The notes: generated by a model from the sequence alone, not told the origin. Shown: positions 3,961 to 60,921, counted from the stretch's first letter. The stretch: 63,012 nt of DNA from Eubacteriales bacterium (GCA_045613205.1 JAZLAO010000143.1:1-63012); one strand, 5' to 3'. Numbers and translations: made by a program.

Positions 3961-4031
3961 AAAAACAGATTAATGAGTATTACGGCAAAAATCAGTGAGC
4001 TTTGCCACATTAAGCCCGGAGGATGTTGTGA

Positions 4032-29100: not shown

Positions 29101-30468
29101 CCTTATGTGCAGTGAAAGCTGGTAGCCGTTAAGGTCGAGATATACGTTGCCCTCGCCTATGGATGTGCTAGCGGACATAACCACACTGACGTCGGAGAGA
29201 AGCTTTATAGCGCTGCCGTTCTTCATGTCATCGAGAGTTGTCAGAAATTTATCATTTGACACGAGCGTATAAGCGTCTTTGCCGGAATCGAAATAGAGGA
29301 ATTTTCCCGAAGCCTCCGCCTCTTTCGAGCTCTTTTCCGGATCAGTGGTGTTATTCTCTGCATAGTAGTTAAGCTCAAGATTGTCAAACGCGAACGAGTA
29401 TTTGTCGTACATTTTTTCGCCCGGGATTCCGGCTTGCGTGTTATCTTTATAAAACTCCATCTTCAACTGATAGAATACGTTATATTTAGCAGCGTTCGTA
29501 ACAGTAGCTCCATCTCTTGTGAAAGAGGACCAGCTGCTGAGAGTTTGCGCATATTCACCGTTGACGTAAAGCTTGGGAGTAATAACTGACTCGACAACGT
29601 CGTTATAGGTTTCGCCTTCGCTTACTTCAAAAACGAATGAGATATGGTCAAAAACGCCGATTTCACCTGAAAGCTTGGCATTTCCCAAATACCAACCGTC
29701 ACTCTTCTTTGTAACGGAAACACCGGCAGCTGCGTTCTGTTTCCAATAAGTATTGCTGCTGGAAGAGAGCAGATTCTTATTATTGCCCGATGCGTCTACT
29801 TCGTTCAGGTTTGAATCGTCCTGCAATGAAGACTGGAATACAGGAGTAAGTTTAAGATCTGTGGGATATGCAAGTGTTTTTGCCTCTAAAACAGCTTTTA
29901 TTTCCTCGTCTGTGAAGTTTTTAGCCGCAAGCTCAGCTTTGATTACGTCGTCGCTGGAAGCCGTTTTGTATACGGTCGTTCCCTCGTATACATAGGTGTA
30001 CGCCCATGCGTCAGCACCGAAATCGAAGTCGAGGGTTATGGACTTAAAATTCGAAACATCGGCTGCAGAGCTGTAATTGGAGTATGCTCTCCATCTTATC
30101 GTTGCTTCGCGCTTAATCTGGGCTGCGATTTCATTTTCTAATAAAGAAGAATAGAATGCGCTCGGATTGTCAAGTGCACCTGCGGTATAGTGTATCCGCG
30201 CGTAAGTGTTTCCTTTCCCGTCAGATACGTGTGAAATAGTAATAAATTCACTTTTTTTACTGTTCTCCGAGCCAAAGAGCAGACCTGAATTTGAAGATGC
30301 AAGGTATTCAGTCAGACCGTTAGGTCCTACCGTGCAATCGTCGATTACCGATTCTGCTATAGCCAGTGTTTTGCCTGCGTTTTCCGCTGACGCAAAAAGC
30401 ACTGCTATTGCGCTGAAAAGAAGACAAACAGACAGTAAAACTGCAAGTAGTTTAGAGCGTTTAGACAT
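23116..30468 (-). CDS. Giant secreted multidomain protein: signal peptide, unknown N-terminal domains, beta-helix core homologous to 54345-63012 array, DxDxDG repeats, BspA-type LRR, Cys/His repeats
   Basis: [28 protein letters not shown]; shared motifs RLDAH, LRSDYG.TW.G, NWDFGY; [21 protein letters not shown]; [14 protein letters not shown] repeats. Confidence 0.8.
23200..23850 (-). repeat. Four ~123-nt (41-aa) tandem Cys/His repeats plus one degenerate copy
   Basis: accgcaagcctcgcagtgcttaccctcggtaag recurs at 23248 and 23371 (period 123); unit [24 protein letters not shown]. Confidence 0.9.
24540..24840 (-). repeat. Two 180-nt (60-aa) repeats with DxDxDG calcium-binding-like motifs
   Basis: [24 protein letters not shown] / [24 protein letters not shown]; ttttgtagc at 24621 and 24801. 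Confidence 0.75.
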
Positions 30469-30502
30469 AATATTTCTCCTAAATATAAAATATATCAAAT
30501 CT

Positions 30503-30531
30503 ATTATATCATGCAAATTGTTTGGTGTCAA
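30503..30531 (-). promoter_or_regulatory. sigmaA promoter of giant gene
   Basis: TTGACA-17-TATAAT with extended TG. Confidence 0.8.
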
Positions 30532-30576: not shown

Positions 30577-30611
30577 AAAAAAATGAGAGCAGCCCAATTT
30601 GAGCTGCCCTC
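30577..30611 (-). terminator. Terminator closing the phage-like operon
   Basis: Minus strand GAGGGCAGCTC-aaatt-GGGCTGCTCTC followed by ATTTTTTT. Confidence 0.7.
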
Positions 30612-30664: not shown

Positions 30665-31489
30665 CTAAACAGTTTTTAAGAATGCATCGAGGAGTCTTGT
30701 TTTGGTTTCAAGCCATAGCGTGATTCTGTGCTTTTTATAATTATATCGCGAGACGTAGCCCTTGAATCCGATGAGCAGGAGCGAGGAAAGCTTGAATATT
30801 CCGTCTAAAATCACGCCTATCGAGAGATTGTCCTTCGTCGTCAGGATTACTGAAACCGTGACTGTCATACAGACCGTCGTCGGCAAAAGCTTCAGCACCA
30901 TAAACGCAAATCTGAATTTTTCGGGGTTCGAAAGCTCGCTTCTTTCCTTTGATTGCTCATGTGAGAGCAGGGCTTTCGGTGTCAAGGATATTGCGCGGAA
31001 TTTATCTGCTCGGCGAAATACACGCAATGCCTTTTTGGTTTGCTTTTTGCCTTGCCTGTAGGCTTCGTATTCGTCGGTTCCGTACCCGTATCCGATAAGA
31101 AAGCTTTCGCGCCTGTATTTGAGCTCGTCGGCAGAGTAGCTTTGAGAAAATTTTCTTAGTGCCGAGATTTTATCTCCGCCTATCTCTTTGCAAAGCTCGT
31201 TGTATTTGCCGAGAGCTACCTTGTATTCCTCGCACCGCTCGCCCGCGTTTTCGCCCGCCTCGGTCATTGAAAAATACATCAGATATGAGGAAATCAGCAT
31301 AATTAGCAGAGTCGTAGTAAAGCTTTCGGTGCTGAAATCTGCCATTTTTATGTCGGTGAAAAGTACCAGAGCTGAAACTATAAGAGTGATAGAGGCAACT
31401 ATGCGCCCCACGTTGTTGATAAGCAGCGCGGTGCCTCGCCTCATAATTTCTCCCGATTCGAGAAGTGAAAGCTCGAACTTATCCTTCAT
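30665..31489 (-). CDS. Membrane protein, ~4 TM with cytoplasmic helical loop
   Basis: Two N-terminal and two C-terminal hydrophobic helices. Confidence 0.7.
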   Translation of the reverse strand: MKDKFELSLLESGEIMRRGTALLINNVGRIVASITLIVSALVLFTDIKMADFSTESFTTTLLIMLISSYLMYFSMTEAGENAGERCEEYKVALGKYNELCKEIGGDKISALRKFSQSYSADELKYRRESFLIGYGYGTDEYEAYRQGKKQTKKALRVFRRADKFRAISLTPKALLSHEQSKERSELSNPEKFRFAFMVLKLLPTTVCMTVTVSVILTTKDNLSIGVILDGIFKLSSLLLIGFKGYVSRYNYKKHRITLWLETKTRLLDAFLKTV

Positions 31490-31859
31490 TTTTCCACTCT
31501 CCCACCCTCTTATATCTCTCTGCTAGCTTGAATAACATAGCACCGAGGAGGTTAGATATGAATCCAACGAAGCAAATTACCTTCATTTCCTCTGCAATTT
31601 CCGATAGCATGAAGAAGATAACAAATGCGAAAAACCACATGAGATAAGCAGCGGGTGATTTCAATGCTTGCTTTACAAGCTTTATTACGGGAACTGCTGC
31701 CATAAGTATGAGCGTGAGGGAAAAACCTGAGATTACTGCCGTCGCGCCTCTGTTTGTCCATATCGGAAAATAAAAAGCTATAGAAGATAAGACCGGCAGA
31801 ACAGACAGTAGAAGTCCGACAGCGTAAAGCAAATAAAACTTACGCTTAGGCTTATTCAT
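31479..31859 (-). CDS. Small polytopic membrane protein (4 TM; holin-like topology possible)
   Basis: Basic N-terminus then four hydrophobic helices; GGAGG RBS before ATG 31859. Confidence 0.65.
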   Translation of the reverse strand: MNKPKRKFYLLYAVGLLLSVLPVLSSIAFYFPIWTNRGATAVISGFSLTLILMAAVPVIKLVKQALKSPAAYLMWFFAFVIFFMLSEIAEEMKVICFVGFISNLLGAMLFKLAERYKRVGEWKNEG

Positions 31860-32433
31860 CGGACTTTTCCTCCGTGTCAAGAAGCCTTTTCTTCATTGCG
31901 GATATTTTTTCTCCTACAGCCTCCTTCTGAAACAGAGGAATAGAGCTTGACATAAAGATGTCGTAAAGCATATCTATCTGCGATTCCAGAATTATTTTCA
32001 TATCCTCAGCACTTTTTTTATCCTCTATCGCCTCGCTGAGCCTTTTTTCAACGCAGTCAAGCTTTTCCGAGAGAGAGGAAAGACACTTTTCGGTGTCAGT
32101 GAGCTTGTCCTTTGCCTCGGTTAGCGTTTTTACCGACGCTTCGCTTGCTTTGTCGGCTTCTTCCTGCAGTTTAGTTACTGTAGCACCGAGCGTGTTAAGC
32201 CCGCCTTTTATGAGGGGAACAATTCCCGAACGGTATGTGAATGCGAGGAAAAGGGAAGCGCAGAAAGCAAGAGCCGAAAGTATTTTGTCGGAGTGCTGTA
32301 AAATCAAAGAATAAACATCTGCAAAGACGTTTGATTCCGCTGAGGCTTCCTGTCCATCGCTCGCAAGGACGCTGACCGACAGAAGCGAAAATATAAGAAA
32401 TACTGTTAGTGTAACTGTTAAAACTTTTTTCAT
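31852..32433 (-). CDS. Membrane-anchored coiled-coil protein
   Basis: Signal-like N-terminus, second TM, heptad-rich C-terminal half. Confidence 0.7.
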   Translation of the reverse strand: MKKVLTVTLTVFLIFSLLSVSVLASDGQEASAESNVFADVYSLILQHSDKILSALAFCASLFLAFTYRSGIVPLIKGGLNTLGATVTKLQEEADKASEASVKTLTEAKDKLTDTEKCLSSLSEKLDCVEKRLSEAIEDKKSAEDMKIILESQIDMLYDIFMSSSIPLFQKEAVGEKISAMKKRLLDTEEKSDE

Positions 32434-32449
32434 CTGATTATTCCTTTCT

Positions 32450-32845
32450 TCAAAAAGTGATTTTTCTTTCTGTTTTGTTTTCTAATTCCCCGAGTGCTTT
32501 TTCAATGGCGTCCATACGGTGAAGAATAGCATCGACGGTAATCGACAGTCTTCTCACATAATCCGAATCGGGCGCTTTTTGAATAACAGCACCGTGCTTG
32601 AATATGAATCCTTCGATTTTGTGCATACCCCCACCCGTGTAAAGCTTTGGCGCAATTTCTCCTTCAGGAAGACGCGCTGATATAATTCGGCAGACACCGC
32701 CGCAAATATCGAATACCGAGTTTGAAATCAGAAGCTTTCCGTCAACGGGTTCTTCAAATTCAAATGTAATTTCTTCACCGGGATGATTGGAAATTTCCGA
32801 GATTTCATATCGCCCGAGAATCTTTTTGTAAAAAATAGTAGTCAT
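32450..32845 (-). CDS. Hypothetical protein (beta-rich N-term, short coiled coil C-term)
   Basis: ORF with GGAGG RBS in operon. Confidence 0.6.
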   Translation of the reverse strand: MTTIFYKKILGRYEISEISNHPGEEITFEFEEPVDGKLLISNSVFDICGGVCRIISARLPEGEIAPKLYTGGGMHKIEGFIFKHGAVIQKAPDSDYVRRLSITVDAILHRMDAIEKALGELENKTERKITF

Positions 32846-32854
32846 TTTACCTCC

Positions 32855-33241
32855 TTAGAGCGAAAGCTTGAGCTTATCGGCTATCTTGTCGACGTCAGCT
32901 CTCAGCTTGATTAAGTATTCAGCGAGGTTTCCGTTAGGTGCTGCAAGATATGTCAAAAGGTTTCCGTTTAAGACGTCGGAGAAAAAATCGGCAAGGGTTT
33001 GTGTATCGAAAAGTCCTGTCTTTATTGTATCTGTTACGCTTCCGCCTTCTTCTCCGCGAATATCCAATATAAGCTCGTTGTATTTTTCCACAAGGAAAAG
33101 CGGAAGACTGTCAAAAGCTTCTTTCAGCTCGGTTGCGGTATATCCCTTTCCGCCGAAGGCGGCGGGGGCGGTCGGTCTTGTCGGCAGAGAAGCGACCTTT
33201 TTGTCGTTTATATCTCCGTCTGTGATTATCTTTGATTTCAT
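32855..33241 (-). CDS. Hypothetical protein, possible tail-fibre anchor domain
   Basis: SLPTRPT..TATELKEAFD motif; position after tail hub. Confidence 0.5.
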   Translation of the reverse strand: MKSKIITDGDINDKKVASLPTRPTAPAAFGGKGYTATELKEAFDSLPLFLVEKYNELILDIRGEEGGSVTDTIKTGLFDTQTLADFFSDVLNGNLLTYLAAPNGNLAEYLIKLRADVDKIADKLKLSL

Positions 33242-33253
33242 AGTTATCCTTTC

Positions 33254-35980
33254 TTAATTCTTTATTTTTCCTTTTACTGTGAACCGGTATATGATAGAGT
33301 AGATTCCAAAAGGAGAGGAATATTTTTCGGAATAGAACGCCACGTTTTTCTCAAGCCACCCTTTTTCTCTTTCTTTGAGCGCGAGTGTTGCATACTCAAG
33401 ATTTGCAAACGAGAGATTTTCAAAATCAAATTCAGCGAAGTTAAGAGCCGAGTCGGGAAGCTTTGCAACCTCTGTATATCCGCGTTTGTCCGTTCCCACC
33501 TCGCAGTTTATTTCGCTGCCTCCTATGCACCTTACCTTTACTACTAAGGAGTGCTTTACAGTGTTCTTCGTAAAGTTGGGTATTCCGCCGTTGTCTGATA
33601 CGGTTTTTAATGCATATCTCGGTGCGTGACCGTCGAAATTGTAAAAATAGGGATGGATTTCGTTACCGTAAAAATTTTTGTATTCCTCTTCGTTGAAGTC
33701 TGACTGTCCCTTGAGAAAATCAGGAGCTACGCCTCTTTTATCGTTGTTAAATAAACAGAGGTCACCGCTTTCCGTTCCAAAGAACAGCAGGTTGCTTTCG
33801 GTTGCAAACACGCAGCAAGCAGGTGAGAAAACACCGCCGCGCAGTTCGCCGTCGGTATACGCTGCGTATTTAGTTCCGTTTTCATTCGTGTAGTATACGG
33901 CTTTATTATTTTGGTTCATCGTCAGATAAACGGTAGTGGCAACCTCTTGATTAGTCTTCGTCGGATGGACGGAATATCCATCTTCCGCGTGCTCTGCATA
34001 CCTGAAGATTTTTGTCGCTTCACGGTATGTTCCGATTCCCGAAAGGTAATACCACTCGTATTCGCTCTTTCCCTCCGCGTTCGTATATATATCTCTCGAA
34101 TCGGCAAGATATAAATGTTCACCGGCCTGCAGAACGAGATATCCGCACCACTTTGTCATAGTGGCATTTTCAAGGTCTTCACGCAGAAGCCGCGGATTTA
34201 CGTTGCTTGAGCGTACGGCAATGCTTCTGTCTAGATTTATAATTTTCTTGTCCAGAGCCGTAACTCCGAGCGGGGATAGGAACAATGGGTCGTCAAAAAA
34301 TGATATTGACTCTCCTACAGCGCTTATTCCGCTGTGTATATATGACACGGGGTATATCTTTGGTAAAATATTAACTCCGGTTTCTTTGGGCGTGTGGTAA
34401 TATATACTTCCGCCGCCGTCATCGCCCGACTTAAATACAGCGAGAGAATCTCCTGTTGCAAGCAAAGATTTAACCGTGTAGTTTCCCGTTCCGTCATTAA
34501 AATAATTTAGAATTCCGAAATAGGTAGGGTTGTTTCTGCCGGTGTTATCACGCGAGGAATAAAAAACGGTGTTCGGCAGCTCCGGGTTGCCCGAAAGAAA
34601 CACTCTGCCGTCAAAGCATTCGCATACAGTACAGCCCACTATGGCACTTCTTCCGCTTATTGTGCCTCCGTTTTCTGCAATAAAATTCGTTCCGACAGAG
34701 TTTGTCGTGAATTTTGAGCTGTTTGAAGTACCTAAAATTTCGACTTCCTTTCCGTCAAGCGAGCTTCTGTCAAGTGAGGTTATGGTAACAGCGGTATAGA
34801 GCGAGTCCACGGTTTTTGTGTTGAACGAAACCGTAACACCGTCAAGCGTTACTCTCTCTATAGCTTTTGCCGGGCTGAAAATCGGAATTTCAATAACGAG
34901 AGTGTTAAAGGCCACGTCGCAGTTGACGGTGTAACTGCTTAAATCTGTTTCGGTTTCTATTTTTGCAAATTCGCTTTCGCTTCCTTCGTAATCAAGAACG
35001 GTGAGGGAAGAACAGTTTTGGAAAACGTTTTTTTCGATTTTTTTAAGCGAGGCACCAAGCTGAACCTTTGTAAGCGACGTGCATCCGAAAAACGCCTCGC
35101 TGTCTATAAGCTCAATACCGGAACGGCACATAATACGCGTAAGCAGGGGACAGTGTCCGAAAGCATATCTTCCTATCTTTTTTACCGTATCAGGAAGCGT
35201 TACGGCAGAAATTCTCTGATTTGAATAAAATGCATAACTCGATATTTCTGTTACTTTATAGCTTGTGCCGTTTATTTTTGTATACGCGGGCACGTAGATA
35301 ACGCCACCGACATCGGACTGAATTCCCGAAACGCCGACCGTCCCATCTTCTTCCGACAGAATTTTATATATCAACCCCTCGGTTCCGAGGGCTAAATCGC
35401 CCGCTGAAGTGACAACGTATTTTTCATAAAATTTTTCCGTAAGAAGATTGCGTTGCTCGTATTCAACACCGTTGTAGAAAGTAGTGGGAATGTACGGAGC
35501 CGAGTAAGAGCCGTCGCTTATCGTAGAAACGGTGTTATTTTTATCTATTTTGACTATGCTGCGCCCATCCAGGATATATAGGCTGCCGTTAAATGTGAAT
35601 CCGCTGCTTTTTGTGTCCTTTACCGTCAGAATGGGATTTAGAGTCGTTGCGGATTCCTTATTTGAATCTAGGAAACGGTATAAATGCGAGCCTGCGTGTA
35701 CGACGTAATACAGATTGCCGTTTGCGACCTTGTGCGTATATATGGAGTGTATCTTTTCTCCGAATCCCAGAAGCTTTCTGTATCCGGGTACGCTTTCGAT
35801 AATTCCGTCACCGTCTCCCGCGTAGTCCTTATACATGTTTTCGAGATGGGAAAATCTGTATCGCTTTGCCATGCTGTCGAGTGTGGAAAAATCGACACCG
35901 CGCATGCCCGAATAGCTAACCGTATACTCAGCGCTTTTTGAAACTTTGTTTTTGTTTGTTGTTGCCATAACTATGCCCAC
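33254..35980 (-). CDS. Podovirus-type tail hub/nozzle protein (P22 gp10 / T7 gp12-like) with inserted BspA-type LRR domain
   Basis: N-terminal YSGMRGVDFS, beta-propeller-like repeats, position after adaptor; LRR cassette ~34920-35400; start may be ATG 35968. Confidence 0.6.
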   Translation of the reverse strand: MGIVMATTNKNKVSKSAEYTVSYSGMRGVDFSTLDSMAKRYRFSHLENMYKDYAGDGDGIIESVPGYRKLLGFGEKIHSIYTHKVANGNLYYVVHAGSHLYRFLDSNKESATTLNPILTVKDTKSSGFTFNGSLYILDGRSIVKIDKNNTVSTISDGSYSAPYIPTTFYNGVEYEQRNLLTEKFYEKYVVTSAGDLALGTEGLIYKILSEEDGTVGVSGIQSDVGGVIYVPAYTKINGTSYKVTEISSYAFYSNQRISAVTLPDTVKKIGRYAFGHCPLLTRIMCRSGIELIDSEAFFGCTSLTKVQLGASLKKIEKNVFQNCSSLTVLDYEGSESEFAKIETETDLSSYTVNCDVAFNTLVIEIPIFSPAKAIERVTLDGVTVSFNTKTVDSLYTAVTITSLDRSSLDGKEVEILGTSNSSKFTTNSVGTNFIAENGGTISGRSAIVGCTVCECFDGRVFLSGNPELPNTVFYSSRDNTGRNNPTYFGILNYFNDGTGNYTVKSLLATGDSLAVFKSGDDGGGSIYYHTPKETGVNILPKIYPVSYIHSGISAVGESISFFDDPLFLSPLGVTALDKKIINLDRSIAVRSSNVNPRLLREDLENATMTKWCGYLVLQAGEHLYLADSRDIYTNAEGKSEYEWYYLSGIGTYREATKIFRYAEHAEDGYSVHPTKTNQEVATTVYLTMNQNNKAVYYTNENGTKYAAYTDGELRGGVFSPACCVFATESNLLFFGTESGDLCLFNNDKRGVAPDFLKGQSDFNEEEYKNFYGNEIHPYFYNFDGHAPRYALKTVSDNGGIPNFTKNTVKHSLVVKVRCIGGSEINCEVGTDKRGYTEVAKLPDSALNFAEFDFENLSFANLEYATLALKEREKGWLEKNVAFYSEKYSSPFGIYSIIYRFTVKGKIKN

Positions 35981-36807
35981 CCGTCAGTTACGTGATATGA
36001 GTTGTCTATATGGCTTCGGTCGTAATACTTGACGGCTGACATAGCCTCTCTGTAAAGCGACATGTAGTATTGCGATTTTTCCGGATCGTCGTCAAGCCAT
36101 ACGTAAGATGCGGCAAGCAACGGCAGAAGATGTTCGCATCCGTCGGGAACAAAAATATCGTCATCGGGGTTTCCAAACAGCTTTTTCGGAGCTTTTTTGT
36201 AAACCAGGTTGATTTTTCCTGAATATCCGTCAGGGATTCTCATAATTCCTCCTCTTACTTCCGCATTCGCGATAGAAATTCCGTGCTCGTCAGTCGGTGC
36301 TGAAACGAATGAGAGAAAATCCGGAGCAAAATCGCGTATCGTGTATTCGCTATATTCCGAAAGTGTGGGTATATCTTCGGGTGAGTCTCCGTATATCTCG
36401 TCAAAGAGCGCGAAGTCGTATACTGAAAAGGAGTATTCGCCAACGAAATCGATTCTTCCTTCTCCGTGCAGAAAACCTCGGTGAAGAGCAGAATTTTGTG
36501 AAAATTCAAAGATTTCTTCCTTTTCTCCCTCGCAAATCTTGTATTTTCCTCTTCCGCAGGTTTTGAATGAGTAGGCGCGTGCCTTGTAGGAGAAGCTGTC
36601 GGTTTCACCGCCCTTATGTGAGAAATCACCGATTTTTGCTGTCGTAGAGACGGCAGGCTTGAAAATACATATCCTTTCATACGTAGGACGTTCGGTGTAA
36701 ATCAGCATAAGTGCGCGGTTGACAGCGGTTAGCATTCTCTCATCGGAATCGATTTCGGTTTCGAATCCTAGGGCTGCAATTTCTGTGCATAAATCTTTGT
36801 AGGTCAT
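35971..36807 (-). CDS. Head-to-tail adaptor-like protein
   Basis: Follows capsid; N-terminal helical MTYKDLCTEIAALG and C-terminal HLLPLLAASYVWLDDDPEKSQYYMSLY. Confidence 0.55.
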   Translation of the reverse strand: MTYKDLCTEIAALGFETEIDSDERMLTAVNRALMLIYTERPTYERICIFKPAVSTTAKIGDFSHKGGETDSFSYKARAYSFKTCGRGKYKICEGEKEEIFEFSQNSALHRGFLHGEGRIDFVGEYSFSVYDFALFDEIYGDSPEDIPTLSEYSEYTIRDFAPDFLSFVSAPTDEHGISIANAEVRGGIMRIPDGYSGKINLVYKKAPKKLFGNPDDDIFVPDGCEHLLPLLAASYVWLDDDPEKSQYYMSLYREAMSAVKYYDRSHIDNSYHVTDGWA

Positions 36808-36835
36808 TTTTTCTCCTTCCATAGATATTGGTAAA

Positions 36836-36875
36836 GAAAGGCGGAGCCGTATGATTCGGTATATCCGCCTTCCCT
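36836..36875 (-). terminator. Hairpin between capsid and tail genes
   Basis: Minus strand AAGGCGGA...TCCGCCTT followed by TCTTT. Confidence 0.55.
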
Positions 36876-36906
36876 CAAAAACTAATTAAATTGCAGTTTC
36901 AAGATA

Positions 36907-37962
36907 TCAAAGCTGGGTAGCGCCTGATATTGCGGTAGCGGAATCAACCGCAAGCATAATATGCTTGTAGGTGCCGAATCCAACACCGAAACGGCATCTT
37001 CCGTTCCATATGTAGTTGCCGGTATGGTTGTCTATCCAGCTTGAGACAGTGAGCGGAACGCGATTGAAGAACATATTGCCGGAAAGATTTTTATTAGCTT
37101 CGCTTGACATAATCATAACTCTGTCCTCCTTAGGCTGCCAGTTGGGAAGTATAACGACATTCCAGTTTCCAAAATGGAGGTTTATATCGTTATATCCGTT
37201 GCCGAGCGCACCCTCCGAGCCGCAAACCTTTTTTGCAATGGTTTCTGCGACAGGTCTGTTGCCGGGCAATACGAGAGTATCCGCGGTATAACCGAGGGGT
37301 TCTCCGTTTTCGTCCTTCATGTTTCTAAGCTTTACCGAAAGCTCGCCGAGAGCCTCTTCAAAAGCGGCAGTGGAGCTTACTCTCGCATCAGATGCACCGC
37401 TTGCAAAAATATCTCCCCAGAAAAAGTTTGACTGCGTTCCCTGCGAATTTGCGCCCCAGTTATGAGCGTCAGAGAAAAGTGGCGCACCGTCAGCAGTAGT
37501 AAGGTCGAGAGTTGCTTTTGCAAAAACGCTTGAGGGAGATGTTCCGTTAATAAGTGCATGCTCGCATATCTTGTTTATCGTTTTGTAGTAGGAGCGTGTA
37601 AAGTTCTCGGCTCTGCGCTTGGCATCGGCAGCAACACCAAAGTTTGCATCCTCCATCATTTCAGCTGTGATGGTAAACTCCTTCATAAACTGTATGTGCT
37701 CAATAAATTTGCGGTAGGTCTCCTCAATAGAATCGTTTTCAGCGCCGGCACCTTCCGTGACTGCCTGGAAAACGTCAAATTCGTTCTGGCCTATTATTGT
37801 CTCACCAAATCTTCCGCTTTTTTCTACGTTATAAAGCCAGGAGCATATTCCGCCCTTCTTGGTGAGAAGATCACTCTCATGCTCTATTATCATTTTGATG
37901 GGTGTTTCGAGCTTTCCTATTGCACCGTTCTGTGTTCCTGTTGATTTAGAATAAATTATCAT
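36907..37962 (-). CDS. Major capsid protein (HK97-fold, Mu gpT-like)
   Basis: 351 aa, HIQFMKEFTITAEMMED, PLGYTADTLVLP, FFNRVPLTV..Y.W.GR.RFG pattern; position. Confidence 0.7.
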   Translation of the reverse strand: MIIYSKSTGTQNGAIGKLETPIKMIIEHESDLLTKKGGICSWLYNVEKSGRFGETIIGQNEFDVFQAVTEGAGAENDSIEETYRKFIEHIQFMKEFTITAEMMEDANFGVAADAKRRAENFTRSYYKTINKICEHALINGTSPSSVFAKATLDLTTADGAPLFSDAHNWGANSQGTQSNFFWGDIFASGASDARVSSTAAFEEALGELSVKLRNMKDENGEPLGYTADTLVLPGNRPVAETIAKKVCGSEGALGNGYNDINLHFGNWNVVILPNWQPKEDRVMIMSSEANKNLSGNMFFNRVPLTVSSWIDNHTGNYIWNGRCRFGVGFGTYKHIMLAVDSATAISGATQL

Positions 37963-37980
37963 TTTTATCTCCTTTCAAAT

Positions 37981-38394
37981 TTACCATTTAAGAGCTACGA
38001 GTACTTTTTTTCTTGTGGCGGCTTCATCTTTCGAAATAAGCTTTGCGTCACTGCCATCTTCAGCTTCAACACCGGAAAGACTGTCTTCAGAGTCCAAATG
38101 GGCAATAATAGTGTCGCCCACATTTACGGCAGTGTAATCTTTGTATATGTCTGTTTCGAATATCATTCCTTCGGTAACAAAATAGCCTAGCAACTTAGTT
38201 TTTCCGCTGTTTTCAGGTACGCTTTCAAGAGGGATGAATTTAAGGTCGTCCTCATTGGTGGGATAGTTTTCTACTTTGCCTTGTGAAAAGAAGTAAAAGC
38301 TACCGGCGGTATATTGGTTTTTACCGTCTATATGGACATATGTTGGTTCCGGAACGTTAGTTCTCGCTCCGATAATTTTTATAAGTTTAAACAT
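37981..38394 (-). CDS. Putative capsid decoration/minor head protein
   Basis: 137-aa beta-rich ORF between scaffold-like and capsid genes. Confidence 0.45.
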   Translation of the reverse strand: MFKLIKIIGARTNVPEPTYVHIDGKNQYTAGSFYFFSQGKVENYPTNEDDLKFIPLESVPENSGKTKLLGYFVTEGMIFETDIYKDYTAVNVGDTIIAHLDSEDSLSGVEAEDGSDAKLISKDEAATRKKVLVALKW

Positions 38395-38409
38395 AAATAT
38401 TTCCTTTCT

Positions 38410-38889
38410 TTATTTTGTAACACGCTTATAAAGCTTTCTGATTTCTGCGTCGGAGACACCGACAAAAATTTCTCGAGCCGCTGAAAGCTCGGATTCCGAC
38501 ATGGAGCCGTTTTGCGCGGCGGAAACGGTACGTGTAGCAACGAGGTGTGAGCGGTTATCCTTTTTTTGCCGTTTAGCCGTAGCAAGATAGGCTTCAACCG
38601 GAGTGAGTCCGAGGTCGCGCAGAGCAGCATAACGCAGGGGGTCGTTAAGTTCGGTGATGTCCGTAAGAGAAGATAATTCTCCGAACTCTTCCCTTAGAAC
38701 ACGCAAGTCTTCTTCGACAACAGCTGCGTAATCGATATCGCTGTTAGCGTTATGCTCGAGCTCTTCGTTTTGGGGAACGTCCTCGGTTTGCATCCTATCC
38801 GTGTCAATTTCCGGAGGTTCGATTGCCAAGGCGGCACTGGTGTCTTGTAAATTTTTATTTACATTTTCAATATCTTTGGTATCAGTCAT
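38410..38889 (-). CDS. Putative scaffolding protein
   Basis: Acidic disordered N-terminus, helical C-terminus, position before capsid. Confidence 0.5.
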   Translation of the reverse strand: MTDTKDIENVNKNLQDTSAALAIEPPEIDTDRMQTEDVPQNEELEHNANSDIDYAAVVEEDLRVLREEFGELSSLTDITELNDPLRYAALRDLGLTPVEAYLATAKRQKKDNRSHLVATRTVSAAQNGSMSESELSAAREIFVGVSDAEIRKLYKRVTK

Positions 38890-39023
38890 TTCTTAGTGCC
38901 TCCGCGCAGGTCACCGTTCCCTGTGATTTTGGAAGAGGCGGGCTCCTTTTTATTCGAGCCACGGGGTGCATCTATTTTCGTAGGGTTGTAGGTTCCGTAG
39001 GGAGAGTATTCTTTGTTTTTCAT
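38886..39023 (-). CDS. 45-aa basic small protein (not in ORF track)
   Basis: MKNKEYSPYGTYNPTKIDAPRGSNKKEPASSKITGNGDLRGGTKK*; AAAGGA RBS; TGA overlaps next ATG (ATGA). Confidence 0.7.
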   Translation of the reverse strand: MKNKEYSPYGTYNPTKIDAPRGSNKKEPASSKITGNGDLRGGTKK

Positions 39024-39070
39024 ATCTTTTTCCTTTCTGTTTATTTATCGGCATTGCCGCTTTCGGCAGC

Positions 39071-39769
39071 TCACTTGTTTTTGAGATATTCAATATAGTC
39101 GGAGCTGTAATAGTTTTGTCGGTTTATTTTGTCTGCATATTCTGCAAGCTCTTCTGCTTCGCTTTCAGAAAGTCCAAGAGCCAAGGAATATTCGAGCGCC
39201 TGGGTTCTGCCGAAATTTTGACCTATTATAGTTTTGAGTGCGTTCTCTCGGGTTTTGCGTCTCACGCTGTCGCTTGCGTTTTTTGCCGCAAGCTCTGCCG
39301 AGCTTTCCGAAAGACCTTGTTCAAGTGCGAATTTGTAAGCCTTTTCGTAGTCCAATATACCTGCATCAGCGATAGCGCTTACTACGTTTTCATAGTTTGA
39401 CTTTTCCTCTTTTGCAAGTGCCGTGAGGTATTCCGAGTAACCCTTTCGGTTTTTGAGCTCGTTTTCGGCATACTTGTTTCTTGCGCTTTCCTTTCGCTTC
39501 TGCATTTCCGAATAGGCTTTGCCGTTAAGATAATCCGAGTATCCGCTTGCAGTAAGTCCGAGGCTGGAAAGACTTTCTGCAAGGGCTCCGTACTCACTTT
39601 TCGACGTCTTATAATCGCTCGTTATGTCGCGGATGGAATCGGCGTATATTTTCTCCGATTTTATTCCGTTTTCACTGAGCCAACGGCGATAATCTTCTTC
39701 GCTTGTTGTATGCTTTTTGTTTTGCACGTAGGATTTTACAAAATCCTGAAGAGTTGGGGCTTTTGTCAT
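39071..39769 (-). CDS. Helical hypothetical protein, candidate internal/ejection protein
   Basis: YGALAESLSSLGLTASGYSDY motif; ATGA-coupled to portal. Confidence 0.55.
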   Translation of the reverse strand: MTKAPTLQDFVKSYVQNKKHTTSEEDYRRWLSENGIKSEKIYADSIRDITSDYKTSKSEYGALAESLSSLGLTASGYSDYLNGKAYSEMQKRKESARNKYAENELKNRKGYSEYLTALAKEEKSNYENVVSAIADAGILDYEKAYKFALEQGLSESSAELAAKNASDSVRRKTRENALKTIIGQNFGRTQALEYSLALGLSESEAEELAEYADKINRQNYYSSDYIEYLKNK

Positions 39770-41577
39770 TCGAACACCTCCGTCATAGATTTTTCAGCCA
39801 TAGTTTGCTCTTCTTCGGCTGCAAGGGTGAAATATTCTACGTTTTCTCTTGCGTAGGGGTAATGAGCTCTTTCCTGACATTGCCAATAGCGAAGAAGCGT
39901 TACGCTTTTTGATGGGTCACCGAGAGTTCCCGCTTTGAGATTTTCGAGATTTCTCTCCCACAGCGCCTCGCGCTGATATTCAGCGCCGCCGTTCAGGTCT
40001 ACCGAGAAAAGATAAGCGTCGTCATAGTAATATTCACCGGAAGTTATGTCGTACTCAATAAAATCGTATCTGTTAAACTCCGAATTGTGCACACGGCCGT
40101 AAGCATCGCGGAAGCTGAGGGAGCGCGGCTCGTCAGCGAACGCCAGATATTGCTCGAATACGAGTCTGTCTATTTTGGCGTAGGCGGTGTGTTTCATTTT
40201 CTTTTTTGATTCAAGTCTGCCGGATGCTTGGGAAATTTTGAGCTGCCTTGCGTATCCCGATTCCGGGGTGTATGCGTCAAGTCCCTGAAGCGCATCAGAT
40301 ATACCGAGTATTCTTTTTGAGTGCTCGTAAAGTCTTTCCGCTTCTGCTATATCCTGGGAGATATCTGGGGTCGTGTCAACTTTTCCATACTGTGAAGCGC
40401 TTTCACCGGGCTTCATTTTAATTACTTGTCCAAAAACAGAATTGTTTAGAGAAATGCTCGCATCCTCCGGGACTATGGGCGTTATTCCGGCCCTTAGTAG
40501 CTTTTGAAGAATTCTTGACTCGATTTTGTTTATCGCCTGCTGCTCGGGACGTATGTACTCGCAGTCGGATTGACCGAAAAGAGAGTCACCGAACGAGGTG
40601 TTTTTGCGGATGACTATGGGGAAGGATTTTGGGGTGTAGTACGGGATTTCGGTATCCTTCATAATAAATTCATTATTTCGCCTTACAAGCCGTCCGTCCT
40701 CAATTTCCGGGGAAGCCGGAAGAATTTTCGTTCCGTCCCGCAAAAGAATTTCAGAAGAAACCCTCTCAAAAATTTCGTCCTTGTCTACAAGCTTCTTTTT
40801 GCTGCATCTGCAAACATCTTCTTCATTTCCGCAGGCAGCACACACTTTTATTTTGCGCCTGTAATATTTTGGCATGTCAAACAGTGTGAGCGAACCCGAG
40901 AAAATGAATTTTCCTATTTCACCGTCCTCGTCCTTGTAGAAGGTTACTATAATCACCGCTGTGTCGGTATCAGTGCTTTCACTGTCGTTGATTTCGTATT
41001 CCGCAAGTTCAAGCTCCTCCGAGGTGATACCGTAGCGCCGTGTAAGCTCTCCGCGGGTTGTTCTCAGCTTCAAGAAGCAATATTCCATATCTTCTATTGC
41101 GGATATGTCGGGCTGGGGGATGAAATTCATAGGAGAAATGCAATAAAGTCGCACGCCTCCCACCTCTTTTCCAAGCTTTAATGAATTGTCCCACTCAACG
41201 TACCATACGCTGCCGCCGAAAATGTAAGTATATCGTTCATCAATATCGTTCATCTCTTCATAAGGCAGCTTGTCACGCACGGAATAAAGCAGCCGTTCTA
41301 TCGCAAGAGCATTTCTGCTCCTTTTTTCGCTGTAGCAGGCAGCGTCTACCTTGGGGTGAGGAATGTCGGAGGAAACCTGACTCTCAACTATTTCGTAGGT
41401 AATGTTACGTACGGTAACTGCTCTTTCCGAAGAGCCGTCTATATCCTCTGAGCCTCTATACTGCTTCATATGTCTTTCATAAAGAGATTCGGCTTCGGAG
41501 TTTGAGTTTTTTGCGTTTTCATAAAGTGCTGCAAAAAATTCAAGCCTTGCTTCCTTGTTTGTGTTTTCAGTTTTCAA
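39766..41577 (-). CDS. Portal protein (P22-like, long)
   Basis: 603 aa directly after terminase; NITYEIVESQV, GGSVWYVEWD, SLFGQSD, KRILGISDALQG. Confidence 0.75.
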   Translation of the reverse strand: MKTENTNKEARLEFFAALYENAKNSNSEAESLYERHMKQYRGSEDIDGSSERAVTVRNITYEIVESQVSSDIPHPKVDAACYSEKRSRNALAIERLLYSVRDKLPYEEMNDIDERYTYIFGGSVWYVEWDNSLKLGKEVGGVRLYCISPMNFIPQPDISAIEDMEYCFLKLRTTRGELTRRYGITSEELELAEYEINDSESTDTDTAVIIVTFYKDEDGEIGKFIFSGSLTLFDMPKYYRRKIKVCAACGNEEDVCRCSKKKLVDKDEIFERVSSEILLRDGTKILPASPEIEDGRLVRRNNEFIMKDTEIPYYTPKSFPIVIRKNTSFGDSLFGQSDCEYIRPEQQAINKIESRILQKLLRAGITPIVPEDASISLNNSVFGQVIKMKPGESASQYGKVDTTPDISQDIAEAERLYEHSKRILGISDALQGLDAYTPESGYARQLKISQASGRLESKKKMKHTAYAKIDRLVFEQYLAFADEPRSLSFRDAYGRVHNSEFNRYDFIEYDITSGEYYYDDAYLFSVDLNGGAEYQREALWERNLENLKAGTLGDPSKSVTLLRYWQCQERAHYPYARENVEYFTLAAEEEQTMAEKSMTEVFE

Positions 41578-42944
41578 ATTGGTTCTCCGTATTTACGTTT
41601 TAAATAAAGTTTTTCGTCATCGCTGGCAGCGTTAAAATCTTCCCACATATCCCTTGTCCATGCAGTACGCCTTACGTGTCCGTCTTCTTTTACGGGACGG
41701 GCGTGAAAAATAGCAAATCCGCGCAATGCATCGGGGGCGTGAGTTATTGCGTGAGGTTCGTTAGAACAGTCAGTTGGACGTATTTTGTCTACGGTAAGTG
41801 CAGGAAGGCATTTTATGAACTCGGTGCAAACAGAGAATATTTGAAGTTTTGCCCCCGCTCCCGTGTCCTGTAAAAGCTCTTTTATGGCAAGCCACCCGGT
41901 TTCTCTGTCATTCGACGTTTTTGTAAAATTCACACCGTATTCCGAAAAAAGAGAGGCTTTAGTGCGTCCTGTTTCCTGACTGCGACTCCAAAGGTCAGGC
42001 GGTGCAAGGGTGGCATAAATATCCTCACCCTTTGGAGTCCTTGCCAAAATTGCCGCGCAGGATGCGCTTATCGGAAGGTCGGAGGCACAGAATTCCCGAT
42101 ACACGTAAGCTCGGCTGTCGGGACTTACGGCAATCCAAAGACATACGAGTCTGTCCAGACCGTAGTCAATAGTCCTGTATTTTCTCCAGTTGCTTGGTAT
42201 TTCGAACGCCTCACAAACGTGCTTTTCGCGTGAAAACTCTGAAAAATACTGTCCTTCAAAGATGTTCCAATCACCGTAAAGCAGGGCTTTTTTCTCTCTT
42301 TCGGGCAGAGCCAGAAGCCTGTTTTTGTAATCGGGGTCGCCGTTTTTTAAAAAACTGTTGTCGTCAAGGAGCGAGGGAATGAAAATTCTTGTCATACCGT
42401 CTTTTCCTCGAAAGGAGCGTCCCGGATTTCCGGAATCTATAAAGCGCGCCTTAACCCAGCTGTGACCGATTCCTCCGGGATTCGTTGATGATTTAATTTG
42501 TTTGGGATAACTGTTCGCTCCTCTGACTCGAGAGATAAGATATACGTATTGGGCTTCGGTGAAGTGCGTAAGCTCGTCAAATCTTATAACGTCGTATTCT
42601 GCACTTTGATATTGATAGACGTCGTTTTCTGTTGCGCAATAGCCGAAGTCTATTACCGAGCCGTTTTTAAACCTGCCGGTGTGCGATGATGAGTTGAAAG
42701 TATAGATTTGTCTTGGGAATAGTGCAAGGGAAGTTCGTATAAGAGATTTTTCGAGCTCTGCAAAGGTTCTTCTCAATACCAGCTGCTTTGAGGCAGGGTA
42801 GGTCAGGGCGAAAAGCAGCGCGTCCACCATTTGACCGTATGATTTGCCGCCTCCCGCCGCTCCGCCAAAGAGAACCTCGGATTCCGATGCGTCGATAAAA
42901 AGCTTTTGCTTTTCTGTAACTGAGAGATTAAGCTTCACCGGCAC
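41574..42944 (-). CDS. Terminase large subunit
   Basis: Walker A GGAAGGGKS, Walker B IRFDELTHF, STNP, nuclease TIDYG and HAPDALR. Confidence 0.92.
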   Translation of the reverse strand: MPVKLNLSVTEKQKLFIDASESEVLFGGAAGGGKSYGQMVDALLFALTYPASKQLVLRRTFAELEKSLIRTSLALFPRQIYTFNSSSHTGRFKNGSVIDFGYCATENDVYQYQSAEYDVIRFDELTHFTEAQYVYLISRVRGANSYPKQIKSSTNPGGIGHSWVKARFIDSGNPGRSFRGKDGMTRIFIPSLLDDNSFLKNGDPDYKNRLLALPEREKKALLYGDWNIFEGQYFSEFSREKHVCEAFEIPSNWRKYRTIDYGLDRLVCLWIAVSPDSRAYVYREFCASDLPISASCAAILARTPKGEDIYATLAPPDLWSRSQETGRTKASLFSEYGVNFTKTSNDRETGWLAIKELLQDTGAGAKLQIFSVCTEFIKCLPALTVDKIRPTDCSNEPHAITHAPDALRGFAIFHARPVKEDGHVRRTAWTRDMWEDFNAASDDEKLYLKRKYGEPI

Positions 42945-43284
42945 CGTTCGCTATCACCTCGAGAGTGACGTTAAGCTCACCGTCTTCCTTTTCCTTTTCT
43001 TTTTCACCCATTCCGTATTCCGCACTCAGAAGAAACTTTGAAAACGATGAGTCATATCGCCGTGTCAACGCTCCGTCTATAAGGTAATCCCTCCTAATTT
43101 CGCTGCATTCGCGATAGGCTCGTTCAAATTCGCTGTGCTTTCTGAAACATGCGATTTCTTCTAGGGTTGCTCCGATGCTTCTTGCAAATTTCTCAAAGCT
43201 CGGTGCACCCGGTTCGGAATAGGTGATAAAAAAAGTGTAGAGCTGACGCGGTAAATTCTCTGTGTATTTGATTTTTTTCTTCAC
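42928..43284 (-). CDS. Terminase small subunit
   Basis: 118-aa helical protein overlapping terL start; GTG start with GGAGG RBS. Confidence 0.65.
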   Translation of the reverse strand: MKKKIKYTENLPRQLYTFFITYSEPGAPSFEKFARSIGATLEEIACFRKHSEFERAYRECSEIRRDYLIDGALTRRYDSSFSKFLLSAEYGMGEKEKEKEDGELNVTLEVIANGAGEA

Positions 43285-43547
43285 ACCGCATATCCTCCGT
43301 ATTCATTTGGTCTATACTTTCATTCGCCTGTTTTGCCGCTGTGCTATTTTCGCTGAAGGGCGGTGAGGTATTATCCGGAATTGACCTCTCGTCCCTGCGG
43401 CAATTTCATTTTAGCACGCTTTCTGCTTCAAGTAAGTATAGTGCGGTTACAAAAAACACTGGTGAATTTCGTTCTTGCTTTGTGCATTTTGCACAATAAA
43501 CGCGTCGGGTTTTTCAAAAGGCGAAGTAAATATTTTATTAAATACCC

Positions 43548-54270: not shown

Positions 54271-54344
54271 AATAGAAAGGACGGATATTTCTCTTTCTTT
54301 ATGTGCATTTTTTGCAAAAAAAGGAAACTTGGAGGATAAAGGTT

Positions 54345-56492: not shown

Positions 56493-56529
56493 TTTCAGAC
56501 GATTAAAGGTATATTACAAGGAATGAATT

Positions 56530-58689: not shown

Positions 58690-58723
58690 AACATAAAAAG
58701 TATGGGGCTTAAGGAGAAACGTT

Positions 58724-60877: not shown

Positions 60878-60921
60878 TAAAAATATTCAAATACAAAACC
60901 ATAGAGTTAAGGAGAAATGTT

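Follow-up and report, generated by a model that had tools for sequence, protein, structure and literature searches.

A podovirus-like packaging, head and tail operon kept in the chromosome across an uncultured gut Clostridia genus, a candidate viriform of the gene transfer agent kind

Is a set of phage structural genes that sits in a gut Clostridia chromosome, with nothing beside it for replication or integration, a part of a phage, a remnant of one, or a particle that now belongs to the host? The question is raised by the window analysed here, a 63,012-nt contig from a Eubacteriales bacterium, in which a sequence-only reading had recognised an intact podovirus-like packaging, head and tail operon and proposed a domesticated particle resembling a gene transfer agent (GTA). 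The ORF layout and the family and fold assignments bear out the operon itself, which occupies 12.6 kb of the minus strand (30665-43284). Its genes are co-oriented, as had been claimed, with overlapping or near-adjacent junctions; they number 15 rather than 14, the addition being a 45-aa ORF. They run in the order TerS, TerL, portal, helical protein, 45-aa ORF, scaffold, decoration-like protein, capsid, SU10-type adaptor, nozzle with an LRR domain, two small proteins and three membrane proteins (Table 1). The operon encodes a full packaging motor, a head, a short tail made of adaptor and nozzle, and three conserved membrane proteins, and nothing for replication, integration, immunity or lysis.

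Table 1 Features of the operon and its flanking control elements, in window coordinates, listed in the direction of transcription.
Feature	Position	Strand	Evidence and remarks
Operator-promoter	43408..43454	-	TTTTGTAACCGCACTATACTTACT (43454-43431; -35-like CTTACT), 17-nt spacer, -10 TAAAAT (43413-43408)
Structured 5' leader, ~120 nt, up to the RBS	43285..43401	-	MFE folds of 14 orthologous leaders
Small terminase TerS, 118 aa, N-terminally short	42928..43284	-	phrog_3064, E 8e-11
Large terminase TerL, 456 aa	41574..42944	-	phrog_979 (E 2e-47), Terminase_6N
Portal, 603 aa	39766..41577	-	phrog_156 (E 7e-24); SU10_portal 31 bits vs cut-off 30
All-helical charged protein, 232 aa, post-portal	39071..39769	-	No family match
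Basic ORF, 45 aa, uncertain gene	38886..39023	-	Seen in no more than 3-4 orthologous loci
Acidic scaffold-like protein, 159 aa	38410..38889	-	Pre-capsid position; D+E 32 vs K+R 19; conserved in 18 loci
Small decoration-like protein (putative), 137 aa	37981..38394	-	Weakly conserved, 27-54% identity, some loci
Major capsid protein (MCP), 351 aa	36907..37962	-	phrog_371, E 2e-8; 57-90% identity across the genus
Head-to-tail adaptor, 283 aa	35971..36822	-	Pfam SU10_adaptor, 29.7 bits vs cut-off 27
Tail nozzle, 908 aa, with inserted BspA-type LRR domain	33254..35980	-	AF2 fold, Foldseek, LRR_5 E 7e-21
Small post-nozzle protein, 128 aa	32855..33241	-	Conserved 3' of the nozzle gene; no family match
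Small protein, 131 aa	32450..32845	-	Poorly conserved, found in 3 loci
Membrane/coiled-coil protein, 193 aa	31852..32433	-	N-terminal hydrophobic segment; conserved in 13 loci
Polytopic membrane protein, 133 aa	31479..31880	-	3-4 hydrophobic segments; 13 loci, 29-52% identity
Membrane protein, 274 aa, last operon gene	30665..31489	-	Hydrophobic segments; conserved in 12 loci
Intrinsic terminator, operon end	30585..30611	-	12-bp stem, 7 GC pairs, then T-run

Inspection of the packaging genes showed no variation in the TerL Walker A motif (GGxxGGGKS) or in the DE and Asp residues among 13 TerL sequences of 43-83% identity, in line with the intact Walker A/B and nuclease residues reported earlier. 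TerS matches only positions 81-171 of the 175 positions of phrog_3064 and positions 33-104 of GP3_package, and its crown-clade orthologs are mostly 105-130 aa long, versus 167-196 aa in phage-context relatives. This shortness is at most suggestive of a missing N-terminal part: the GP3_package match lacks only ~30 model positions. The profile of the 232-aa helical protein matches the N-terminal part of the post-portal proteins (733-1053 aa) of phage-context relatives.

The gene previously called a tail hub does encode a tail protein, and its specific identity is that of a podovirus nozzle: the AF2 model (pLDDT 88.5) retrieves the nozzles of SU10, T7 (gp12) and P22 (gp10) in Foldseek with E values of 1e-19 to 1e-11. 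The LRR domain is inserted at about residues 240-350 and probably makes the nozzle a receptor binder. Portal, adaptor and nozzle are all of podovirus type and collinear, as in a P22/SU10-like module, the first two with SU10 family scores above the Pfam cut-offs and the third by its fold. The late operon of P22 has the order 3-2-1-8-5-4-10-26-14-7-20-16, that is, TerS, TerL, portal, scaffold, coat, adaptor, nozzle, needle and ejection proteins, and the window operon follows it, in agreement with these matches. It differs from P22 and SU10 in having no tailspike or fibre gene, the LRR domain in the nozzle standing instead, and in being without the rest of a phage genome.

By position, the 128-aa post-nozzle protein is a candidate needle, plug or fibre; its orthologs reach 616 aa in the genus loci and its profile matches viral-contig proteins of up to ~910 aa. 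Hydrophobic segments were found in all three terminal proteins, which had been taken for membrane proteins, and a comparison of gene order with P22-like operons argues that they are probably ejection proteins rather than a lysis cassette. Adaptor and nozzle are merely 38-53% identical between sister species, so the tail modules evolve fast or recombine.

The surroundings of the operon are those of a host chromosome. The terminator that had been placed 3' of the operon is present, and the downstream neighbour has the promoter of its own that was attributed to it: the adjoining gene, with a perfect sigma-70 promoter, encodes a surface protein of 2471 aa, which belongs to a multicopy family of the host, and therefore lies outside the element. 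When all larger ORFs on the 63-kb contig were scanned with Pfam, no integrase, replication, repressor or lysin domain appeared, and a repeat search found no att-like direct repeats bracketing the operon, in both respects as the sequence-only reading had stated. No sheath, tube, tape-measure or regulator gene was found for the element. Its GC content (44.8%) is that of the genome (44.5%). Host genes extend for 20-23 kb on each side (ClpB, Fur and spoIIIA; MutS-like, PanK, NusA and IF2) and are syntenic with a sister species (L078 and L151); the sporulation genes spoIIIAA and spoIIIAE lie within the window. The locus has two properties of a GTA or viriform here: a phage-derived structural cluster, identified by family and fold, resides in a cellular chromosome between host genes, and neither the contig scans nor the flanks of ~25 orthologous loci revealed genes for replication, integration, excision or lysogeny control in or beside it.

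TerL orthologs without stops occur in 34 of the 36 species of the genus, mostly in single copy, and the two species lacking one are represented by MAGs of 72-76% completeness. An independent sample gave the capsid gene in all five genus genomes (the window's genome included); outside the genus this gene is patchy, with 31 of 251 genomes and 19 of the family's 97 genera positive. The whole gene order is kept in ~25 named loci, with a permuted order in one genome (L070) and a second, divergent copy in one (G004). Conserved chromosomal synteny, put forward earlier as a check, held in part. Host orthologs directly flank the cluster in every genus locus examined, and in the crown clade its distal end adjoins a DinG-like helicase gene in 11 species. 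The upstream neighbour varies (an ABC-F ATPase gene in most crown species, a C100 block, or the MutS-like gene) and deep-branching species have the cluster elsewhere, with at least five chromosomal contexts in the genus, so synteny is only partly conserved. The same host-flanked layout recurs on contigs of up to 393 kb.

Congruence with the host tree and purifying selection, proposed as further checks, were both recovered. Of 18 splits, 10 are common to the tree of terL, portal and MCP and that of RpoB; none of 5000 label permutations gave more than 3. Values of dN/dS were 0.04-0.38 where dS could be computed, with dS saturated and the ORFs intact and free of stops. Within the crown clade, a Mantel test of pairwise protein distances against RpoB distances was not significant. 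Across the genus the operon has stayed intact, is under purifying selection and has diverged together with its host; vertical inheritance is observed with the caveats of the crown-clade Mantel result and the variable position, and purifying selection on the structural genes is likewise a property of GTAs and viriforms. The contrary outcomes named beforehand were not seen: orthologs occur outside full prophages, and in place of an assembly join the contig continues as host DNA to either side.

To the 5' side of terS lies an operator-promoter whose motif, TTTG(G/T)AA-N7-ATACTTAC followed after 16-18 nt by TATAAT, is kept in 15 orthologous loci. A 5'-terminal stem opens most of the 14 leader folds, and its sequence varies by species (GCCGC/GCGGC, GTCGG/CCGAC, GTCAG/CTGAC and others); no Rfam family matched the leader. 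The motif is present in 2-5 copies per genome, with only 4 strong sites genome-wide in G000, and its pattern gave 28 matches in 16 related genomes versus 3 for the reversed control. Besides the operon, the scan of the window genome found it only at DUF6291 genes, at a gene for a 1645-aa secreted protein and at an orphan site, and elsewhere in related genomes it precedes DUF6291 genes, a replisome-organiser-like family (start MAKRRMFS) and a wHTH protein gene. The operon lies behind a conserved operator-promoter that also serves a few unlinked phage-derived genes.

In at least four related species (G061, with two copies, G063, G076 and G084), the same operator-promoter precedes the gene for a ~180-aa MuF-barnase protein, in which a C-terminal remnant of Phage_Mu_F (E 1.3e-6, 1.4e-4 and 0.024) is fused to barnase (PF00545; E 1e-6 to 4e-9). 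A barstar gene (PF01337, E 3e-13) follows. No MuF-barnase gene is present in the genome of the window itself. In phage heads, cargo is attached to the portal through MuF domains, as with SPP1 gp7 and the MuF polymorphic toxins. The pairs resemble the MuF toxins of temperate phages in joining a MuF remnant to a C-terminal toxin domain, with an immunity gene next; they differ in being isolated two-gene units between host genes, in carrying the promoter of the particle operon, and in retaining only the last ~45 MuF model positions. The conserved operator-promoter common to scattered phage-derived genes, MuF-barnase/barstar pairs among them, is new here.

Given these pairs, the particle could be a device chiefly for killing or for delivering toxins, a PBSX or tailocin analogue that contains a head and whose packaged DNA would be incidental. 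The LRR nozzle would adsorb to competitors, and MuF-type RNase toxins would then be injected or the envelope merely damaged. A PBSX-like role was also left open by its describers for FpGTA, the GTA of Faecalibacterium prausnitzii (PMC12946183). We consider such a device unlikely for the window operon, which is intact in a genome that has no MuF-barnase gene; the toxin genes are accessory and not universal, and few genes are as well conserved as those for TerS and TerL, an argument for the importance of DNA packaging. There is also a slim chance that the operon is central to a small regulon wired into the host, with the one operator-promoter throughout, to which the MuF-remnant-barnase toxins and their barstar immunity genes also belong in several species. 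The particle would then be a dual-use vehicle, injecting RNase toxin and host DNA together into neighbouring cells, so that non-kin without barstar would be killed and kin would receive genes. To our knowledge, such dual delivery is not done by any described GTA.

True phage relatives of the operon exist and differ from it in content. One (L077) lies in a phage context: PcfJ, DUF3102 and a Rep protein are encoded 5' of its terS, the product of which has 167 aa. Another (L076) is a contig made up of small ORFs of non-host type, and its TerS is 196 aa long; neither has the shared promoter motif upstream of terS. More distant true viral contigs from IMG/VR, 25-48 kb long and with 49-53% identity in the capsid protein, have directly 5' of the scaffold gene an ORF of 2.6-2.9 kaa with no profile match, whereas in the window operon the 232-aa protein lies between portal and scaffold. 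The operon proteins are <35% identical to any cultured phage, and in INPHARED the portal was matched only by two faecal virome scaffolds.

Since the operon encodes no activator, it might be a helper-dependent satellite or defence element, silent until a related phage supplies a late activator, whereupon its capsids would hijack or abort the helper. The clade does have related true phages, infecting it or resident in it (L076, L077 and the IMG/VR contigs), and the promoter type is common to scattered phage-like genes (DUF6291, replisome-organiser-like and wHTH). We find this quite improbable: with no integrase, primase-replicase or excision function the operon is unable to spread as a satellite, it co-diverges with its host, L076 and L077 are without the motif at terS, and it encodes a full tail of its own, unlike capsid-forming PICIs.

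True remnants do occur in other lineages, as in L081, where only terL and portal are left between host genes, and the window operon too consists of structural genes only. That it is a defective prophage remnant, not yet decayed and with no host function, is nevertheless very unlikely, with all 14-15 genes intact in more than 30 species, synonymous sites saturated and dN/dS far below 1, congruent trees, a conserved promoter, and no frequent frameshifts or stops seen in the orthologs. Least likely of all is part of an active phage or prophage with its other genes hidden by an assembly join or located elsewhere, as a MAG of 155 contigs with 3.4% contamination might allow, given the continuous contig with its syntenic host genes on each side and the recurrence of this layout on long contigs of other genomes.

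Inherited intact with the chromosome across an uncultured gut Clostridia genus, the operon is thus most likely a host-owned particle of the GTA kind. We give a probability of roughly 60% to its being a domesticated, chromosomally fixed P22/SU10-like podovirus morphogenetic operon, a viriform of this kind; GTA function itself, that is, random packaging of host DNA and its transfer, we only infer from the genes. For such a viriform, a trans-acting activator encoded outside the operon would bind TTTG(G/T)AA-N7-ATACTTAC, overlapping the -35 of a sigma-A-type promoter, and would turn on the 15 genes, probably in a subpopulation. Portal, scaffold and capsid protein would build a small procapsid, which TerS (without the N-terminal extension of phage relatives) and TerL would fill with host DNA by a headful mechanism with no sequence preference, and adaptor, nozzle and plug would close the head. 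The LRR domain in each nozzle subunit would act as receptor binder, replacing separate fibres, and the three membrane proteins would travel in the particle as ejection proteins and open the recipient envelope. Release would depend on lysis functions that the host encodes at other loci; that mother-cell lysis provides it is no more than conjecture.

The sequence-only reading knew of no well-characterised equivalent in gut Clostridia, a statement now outdated by the description of FpGTA, the nearest system known so far, for which proteomics, 40-nm particles and fragments of host DNA of 8.4-8.9 kb have been reported (Borodovich et al., Nat Commun 2026, PMC12946183). The FpGTA operon (TerS, TerL, portal, scaffold, capsid and hypothetical proteins) measures 10.5 kb and is near-ubiquitous within its genus; its TerS is without an evident DNA-binding domain, replication and integration genes are absent, and a second operon holds baseplate, fibre, RBP, holin and endolysin genes (PMC12946183). 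Both loci are podovirus-like, structural-genes-only chromosomal operons of gut Clostridia, widespread within a genus. FpGTA particles and their packaged DNA have been observed, whereas a particle made by the window operon is a prediction from its genes. Adaptor, LRR nozzle and three membrane proteins share one operon here, and a lysis locus was not found: there are no lysis genes in the operon or behind the shared motif in the window genome, and a search of the motif-linked genes gave no second operon of the FpGTA type. No Faecalibacterium record was among the best 80 of 568 TerL loci, and the family-level capsid search showed no ~3-Mb genus with many positives, which at most hints that close homology to FpGTA proteins is absent.

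RcGTA of Alphaproteobacteria is likewise a host-maintained, vertically inherited head-tail cluster under purifying selection, with control encoded outside it and accessory loci under shared regulation; it differs in being siphovirus-like and unrelated in sequence, with known regulators (CtrA and GafA) and lysis genes. PBSX of Bacillus subtilis is also a defective phage-like element of Firmicutes, which packages host DNA and cannot propagate, but it is a myovirus-like killing particle with its own repressor, the sigma-like factor Xpf and lysis genes. Two assignments were tried and rejected: a PBSX-like defective prophage, as no contractile tail genes, regulator or lysin gene were found, and a capsid-forming PICI or satellite, as there is no integrase, AlpA-type regulator or primase-replicase and the locus has its own adaptor and nozzle.

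Long-read virome work has recently shown that, where capsids mobilise DNA in gut Clostridia, they do so most often by GTA-like packaging of host DNA; such packaging is reported for several of these bacteria, with a locus identified for Faecalibacterium only (PMC12946183). In a different, uncultured lineage, the operon described here is a concrete candidate for such a locus and occurs genus-wide. Its parts list is complete, from motor, head and adaptor to a nozzle with its own LRR receptor binder and the probable ejection proteins, and its defined promoter motif offers a handle for tracing the regulator and accessory genes. An active operon would add an independent case of podovirus domestication and would let genes, and possibly toxins, pass between abundant bacteria of the gut and rumen.

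The structural operon and terminator proposed in the sequence-only reading were both recovered, as 15 tightly packed ORFs closed by a terminator with a 12-bp stem (see table). Profile searches (PHROGs, Pfam) gave family identities for five of the 15 proteins, namely the two terminase subunits, the portal, the major capsid protein (MCP) and an adaptor. The 908-aa protein, previously read as a tail hub, is indeed a tail part, but by its modelled fold it is a nozzle: the model, computed from an alignment of 23 orthologs (pLDDT 88.5), matches the nozzles of cyanophage A4, SU10, T7 (gp12) and P22 (gp10) with E-values of 1e-19 to 1e-11, and an inserted BspA-type LRR domain interrupts it. The order of the operon is that of the P22 late operon (genes 3-2-1-8-5-4-10-26-14-7-20-16). 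The last three genes therefore stand at the position of the P22 ejection proteins, not at that of a lysis cassette, and their products had no convincing holin or spanin match (best, Rz-like, E = 0.048).

Features of the operon, its host contig and related loci (C, contigs of the window's own MAG; L, loci in relatives)
Feature	Location	Strand	Remarks
Structural operon	window 43284-30665	-	15 ORFs
Small terminase (TerS)		-	phrog_3064; GP3_package
Large terminase (TerL)		-	phrog_979, E 2e-47
Portal		-	phrog_156; SU10_portal over Pfam cut-off
Helical 232-aa protein and 45-aa ORF	after portal		without family
Acidic scaffold-like protein and small protein	before capsid gene		without family
MCP		-	phrog_371
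SU10-type adaptor		-	Pfam score over cut-off
Nozzle, 908 aa		-	modelled fold matches podovirus nozzles
Two small proteins	after nozzle		without family
Three membrane proteins	operon end		without family
Terminator	window 30611-30585
Leader RNA	window 43285-43401	-
Motif site	window 43431-43454	-	terS promoter
Other motif sites	C120:13683, C120:25993, C38:1638	-	two before DUF6291 genes, one orphan
Divergent XRE pair	C120:27454-28031
2471-aa protein	window 23116-30531
Tandem ~720-aa paralogs	window 54303-63012		right end
spoIIIAA, spoIIIAE	window 2594-5691
rpoB	C8:13883-17524
Second N-terminal rpoB fragment	C18:20030-20614
Permuted cluster	L070:248-13890
terL, small ORF, portal	L081:9983-13184
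MuF-barnase/barstar unit	L223:2818-3718		between host genes
MuF-barnase/barstar unit	L224:3023-3892		between host genes
MuF-barnase/barstar unit	L222, near 14496-15471	-	between host genes

The operon lies in host DNA. The window is one entire 63-kb contig of a 2.05-Mb MAG (96% complete), and Pfam scans of every larger ORF on it revealed only cellular functions outside the operon. Among them are AraC, PfkB, spoIIIAA/AE, Asd, a peptidase, PadR, a beta-lactamase-fold protein, Fur, ClpB, a MutS domain V protein, a type II pantothenate kinase, CBS, RimP, NusA and IF2. No repeats bracketing the operon were found, and its GC content equals the genome mean. The MAG also contains a second N-terminal rpoB fragment, which fits its stated contamination of 3.4%. 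With spoIIIAA and spoIIIAE located 25 kb from the operon, the host carries genes for endospore formation; nothing was found that ties these two genes to the operon. The 2471-aa ORF directly downstream was rejected as a part of the element, as it is one of a multicopy family of host surface proteins and has a perfect sigma-70 promoter of its own; its ortholog adjoins the operon in the sister species only. An LRR domain is present in this protein, a hydrophobic segment lies at its C-terminus, its central ~530 residues are common to at least four tandem paralogs in the window, and related genomes encode many copies of the family.

TerL orthologs (61–83% identity, stop-free and mostly single copy) were detected in 34 of the 36 species of the host's uncultured gut Clostridia genus, the other two species being represented by MAGs that are 72–76% complete. 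In a separate family-level sample, all five genomes of the genus, the window's own included, had the capsid gene, which was patchy across the family outside the genus (31 of 251 genomes, 19 of 97 genera). The entire gene order is kept in about 25 species (named loci, GTDB species representatives), and both operon flanks in relatives are orthologs of host genes of the window MAG. In the crown clade of the genus, the usual neighbours are an ABC-F ATPase upstream and a DinG-like helicase downstream; DinG adjoins the cluster in all five crown genomes with both on one contig (G001, G003, G007, G010 and G023) and also at six named loci. Three species have another host block upstream with the DinG side unchanged, in the window MAG and two relatives the MutS-like gene and ClpB flank the operon together with its promoter, and in the deep-branching species the cluster is found at other chromosomal positions. 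Conserved synteny, suggested earlier as a check on domestication, thus holds for the host flanks and the DinG side, which are widely shared, but not for the upstream neighbour or the deep-branching positions, which vary.

A few loci depart from this arrangement. On the 393-kb contig JAXEKG010000003.1 (L070), the genes from capsid-adaptor-nozzle through the three membrane proteins directly precede terS-terL-portal-helical, followed by host genes, a permutation that could be explained by tandem duplication with reciprocal losses or by a circular intermediate. One genome of the genus (G004) has two cluster copies (contigs C12 and C44/C26), with TerL 70% and 67% and capsid 78% and 52% identical to those of the window, a possible sign that the cluster was duplicated long ago or is now and then acquired horizontally. 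At L081, in a Clostridia MAG, terL, a small ORF and portal alone are left, with host genes on either side, which illustrates how a remnant of this family looks while decaying.

Congruence of the element and host phylogenies was evaluated using trees of RpoB (22 genomes) and terL+portal+MCP (26 genomes), with 21 genomes in common. The two trees share 10 of 18 splits, against a maximum of 3 in 5000 label permutations; congruence of this kind was one of the checks named in the sequence-only reading. Pairwise element and host distances were correlated overall (terL r = 0.82); inside the star-like crown clade the correlation was not significant (Mantel), so the topological test was used for co-divergence. 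The expected purifying selection was likewise observed, with dN/dS values of 0.04–0.38 (dS saturated) and the terminase, portal and capsid as the most constrained proteins. The adaptor and nozzle are only 38–53% identical even among sister species, indicating that the tail parts are fast-evolving or recombining.

Upstream of terS in 15 orthologs we identified the motif TTTG(G/T)AA-N7-ATACTTAC, with a -10 element (TATAAT) 16–18 nt on; ATACTTAC overlaps a weak -35, and the whole is predicted to be an operator-promoter. A position-weight scan of the window's MAG returned only four strong sites, near-identical in sequence (TTTTGTAAC(C/G)GCACTATACTTACT, then the -10 element). The two motif-linked DUF6291 paralogs are 179 and 112 aa long; one gene is followed by that of a 1645-aa secreted protein, and a divergent XRE pair is found at a distance of 1.5 kb from the other. 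Across 16 related genomes the pattern had 28 matches (2–5 per genome) versus 3 with a reversed control. Copies inside one genome are often near-identical, with two types of upstream half-site (TGGAAG and TGTAAC), and sites other than that of terS precede isolated one- or two-gene units between host genes, encoding DUF6291 proteins, a family beginning MAKRRMFS, and a Crp/HTH_36-like wHTH protein. As an activator candidate, DUF6291 gave a poor AF2 model (pLDDT 61.5) without a fold match, its PHROGs matches are of unknown function, and no literature on it was found. Besides sigma factors of the ordinary sort, a search for a small sigma-region-4/Ltr-type activator turned up YlxM and a Tn916-like fragment (C129) and nothing else. 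The leader RNAs of the window and its orthologs are 45–145 nt long, mostly with a predicted 5'-terminal stem whose sides vary by species yet remain complementary, often followed by a GAAAA stretch; the operon's 5' leader matched no Rfam family. The putative regulation through the terS motif is new in this analysis.

The same motif precedes two-gene units in four relatives (G061, twice; G063; G076; G084), consisting of a ~180-aa protein and then a barstar. In the former, the first ~60 residues align with the terminal part of Phage_Mu_F (E = 1.3e-6, 1.4e-4 and 0.024), and a barnase RNase domain makes up the C-terminus. As these pairs are apparently co-regulated with the particle operon, the particle may serve toxin delivery or act in the manner of PBSX. 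No such unit is present in the genome of the window.

Several relatives are in real mobile or viral contexts, including L077 (terL 57%; PcfJ, DUF3102 and a Rep protein ahead of the cluster; TerS 167 aa) and L076 (a 15-kb contig with small non-host ORFs; TerS 196 aa). Five IMG/VR contigs of 25–48 kb (L248, L249, L250, L254 and L252) encode capsid proteins 42–53% identical to that of the window; the scaffold-capsid-adaptor-nozzle order is the same in those at 49–53%. Immediately upstream of the scaffold gene such contigs encode a 2.6–2.9 kaa protein, whereas in the window operon only the helical protein of 232 aa stands there, after the portal; versions of 733–1053 aa occur at the post-portal position in L074, L076 and L122. 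This suggests that a large cargo protein of the virion was lost on domestication. At 62% identity or above, every IMG/VR contig is short, and the visible flanks are host DNA (e.g., L238, with the ABC-F gene). Only two of 50,697 phage records (INPHARED) matched the portal, both unverified 7–11-kb scaffolds labelled 'Bacteriophage sp.' from a Mexican faecal virome (L233, MT836833.1; L234, MT837280.1). Their distant, compact terL-portal-scaffold-adaptor-nozzle cluster is without terminal repeats, and they say nothing on autonomy.

Taken to the limit of sequence analysis, the proposal of a GTA-like domesticated particle is supported, and the operon would qualify as a gene transfer agent or viriform on every property testable in silico, i.e., viral structural genes only, host flanks, co-divergence, purifying selection, and regulation from outside the cluster. 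It is not a categorically new thing relative to the literature. The closest described system is FpGTA, the podovirus-like gene transfer agent of Faecalibacterium prausnitzii, a 10.5-kb operon near-ubiquitous in its genus, with a TerS without a DNA-binding domain (PMC12946183). FpGTA operons I and II span CP030777 2536737-2546346 and 2672270-2677176. For the window operon, the properties that would define function are random host DNA in the particles, release and delivery. No Faecalibacterium locus was among the best 80 of 568 TerL loci in a scan of genome contigs, and the matches listed in a protein profile search were close relatives only (74–89% identity). GTA-like packaging has been reported in other gut Clostridia, with loci unknown (PMC12946183), and the operon is a candidate locus for such packaging.

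Compact ~9–10-kb clusters were also seen in other Clostridia (L093, L105, L111, L115, L116 and others), with terL, a portal-sized ORF, scaffold- and capsid-sized ORFs, an adaptor and a ~600–690-aa nozzle in this order; host genes appear to flank those in L093, L105, L111 and L115. These clusters may be further domesticated elements. L115 is the cultured Agathobaculum desmolans ATCC 43058, and if its cluster is domesticated, Agathobaculum would be a tractable model.
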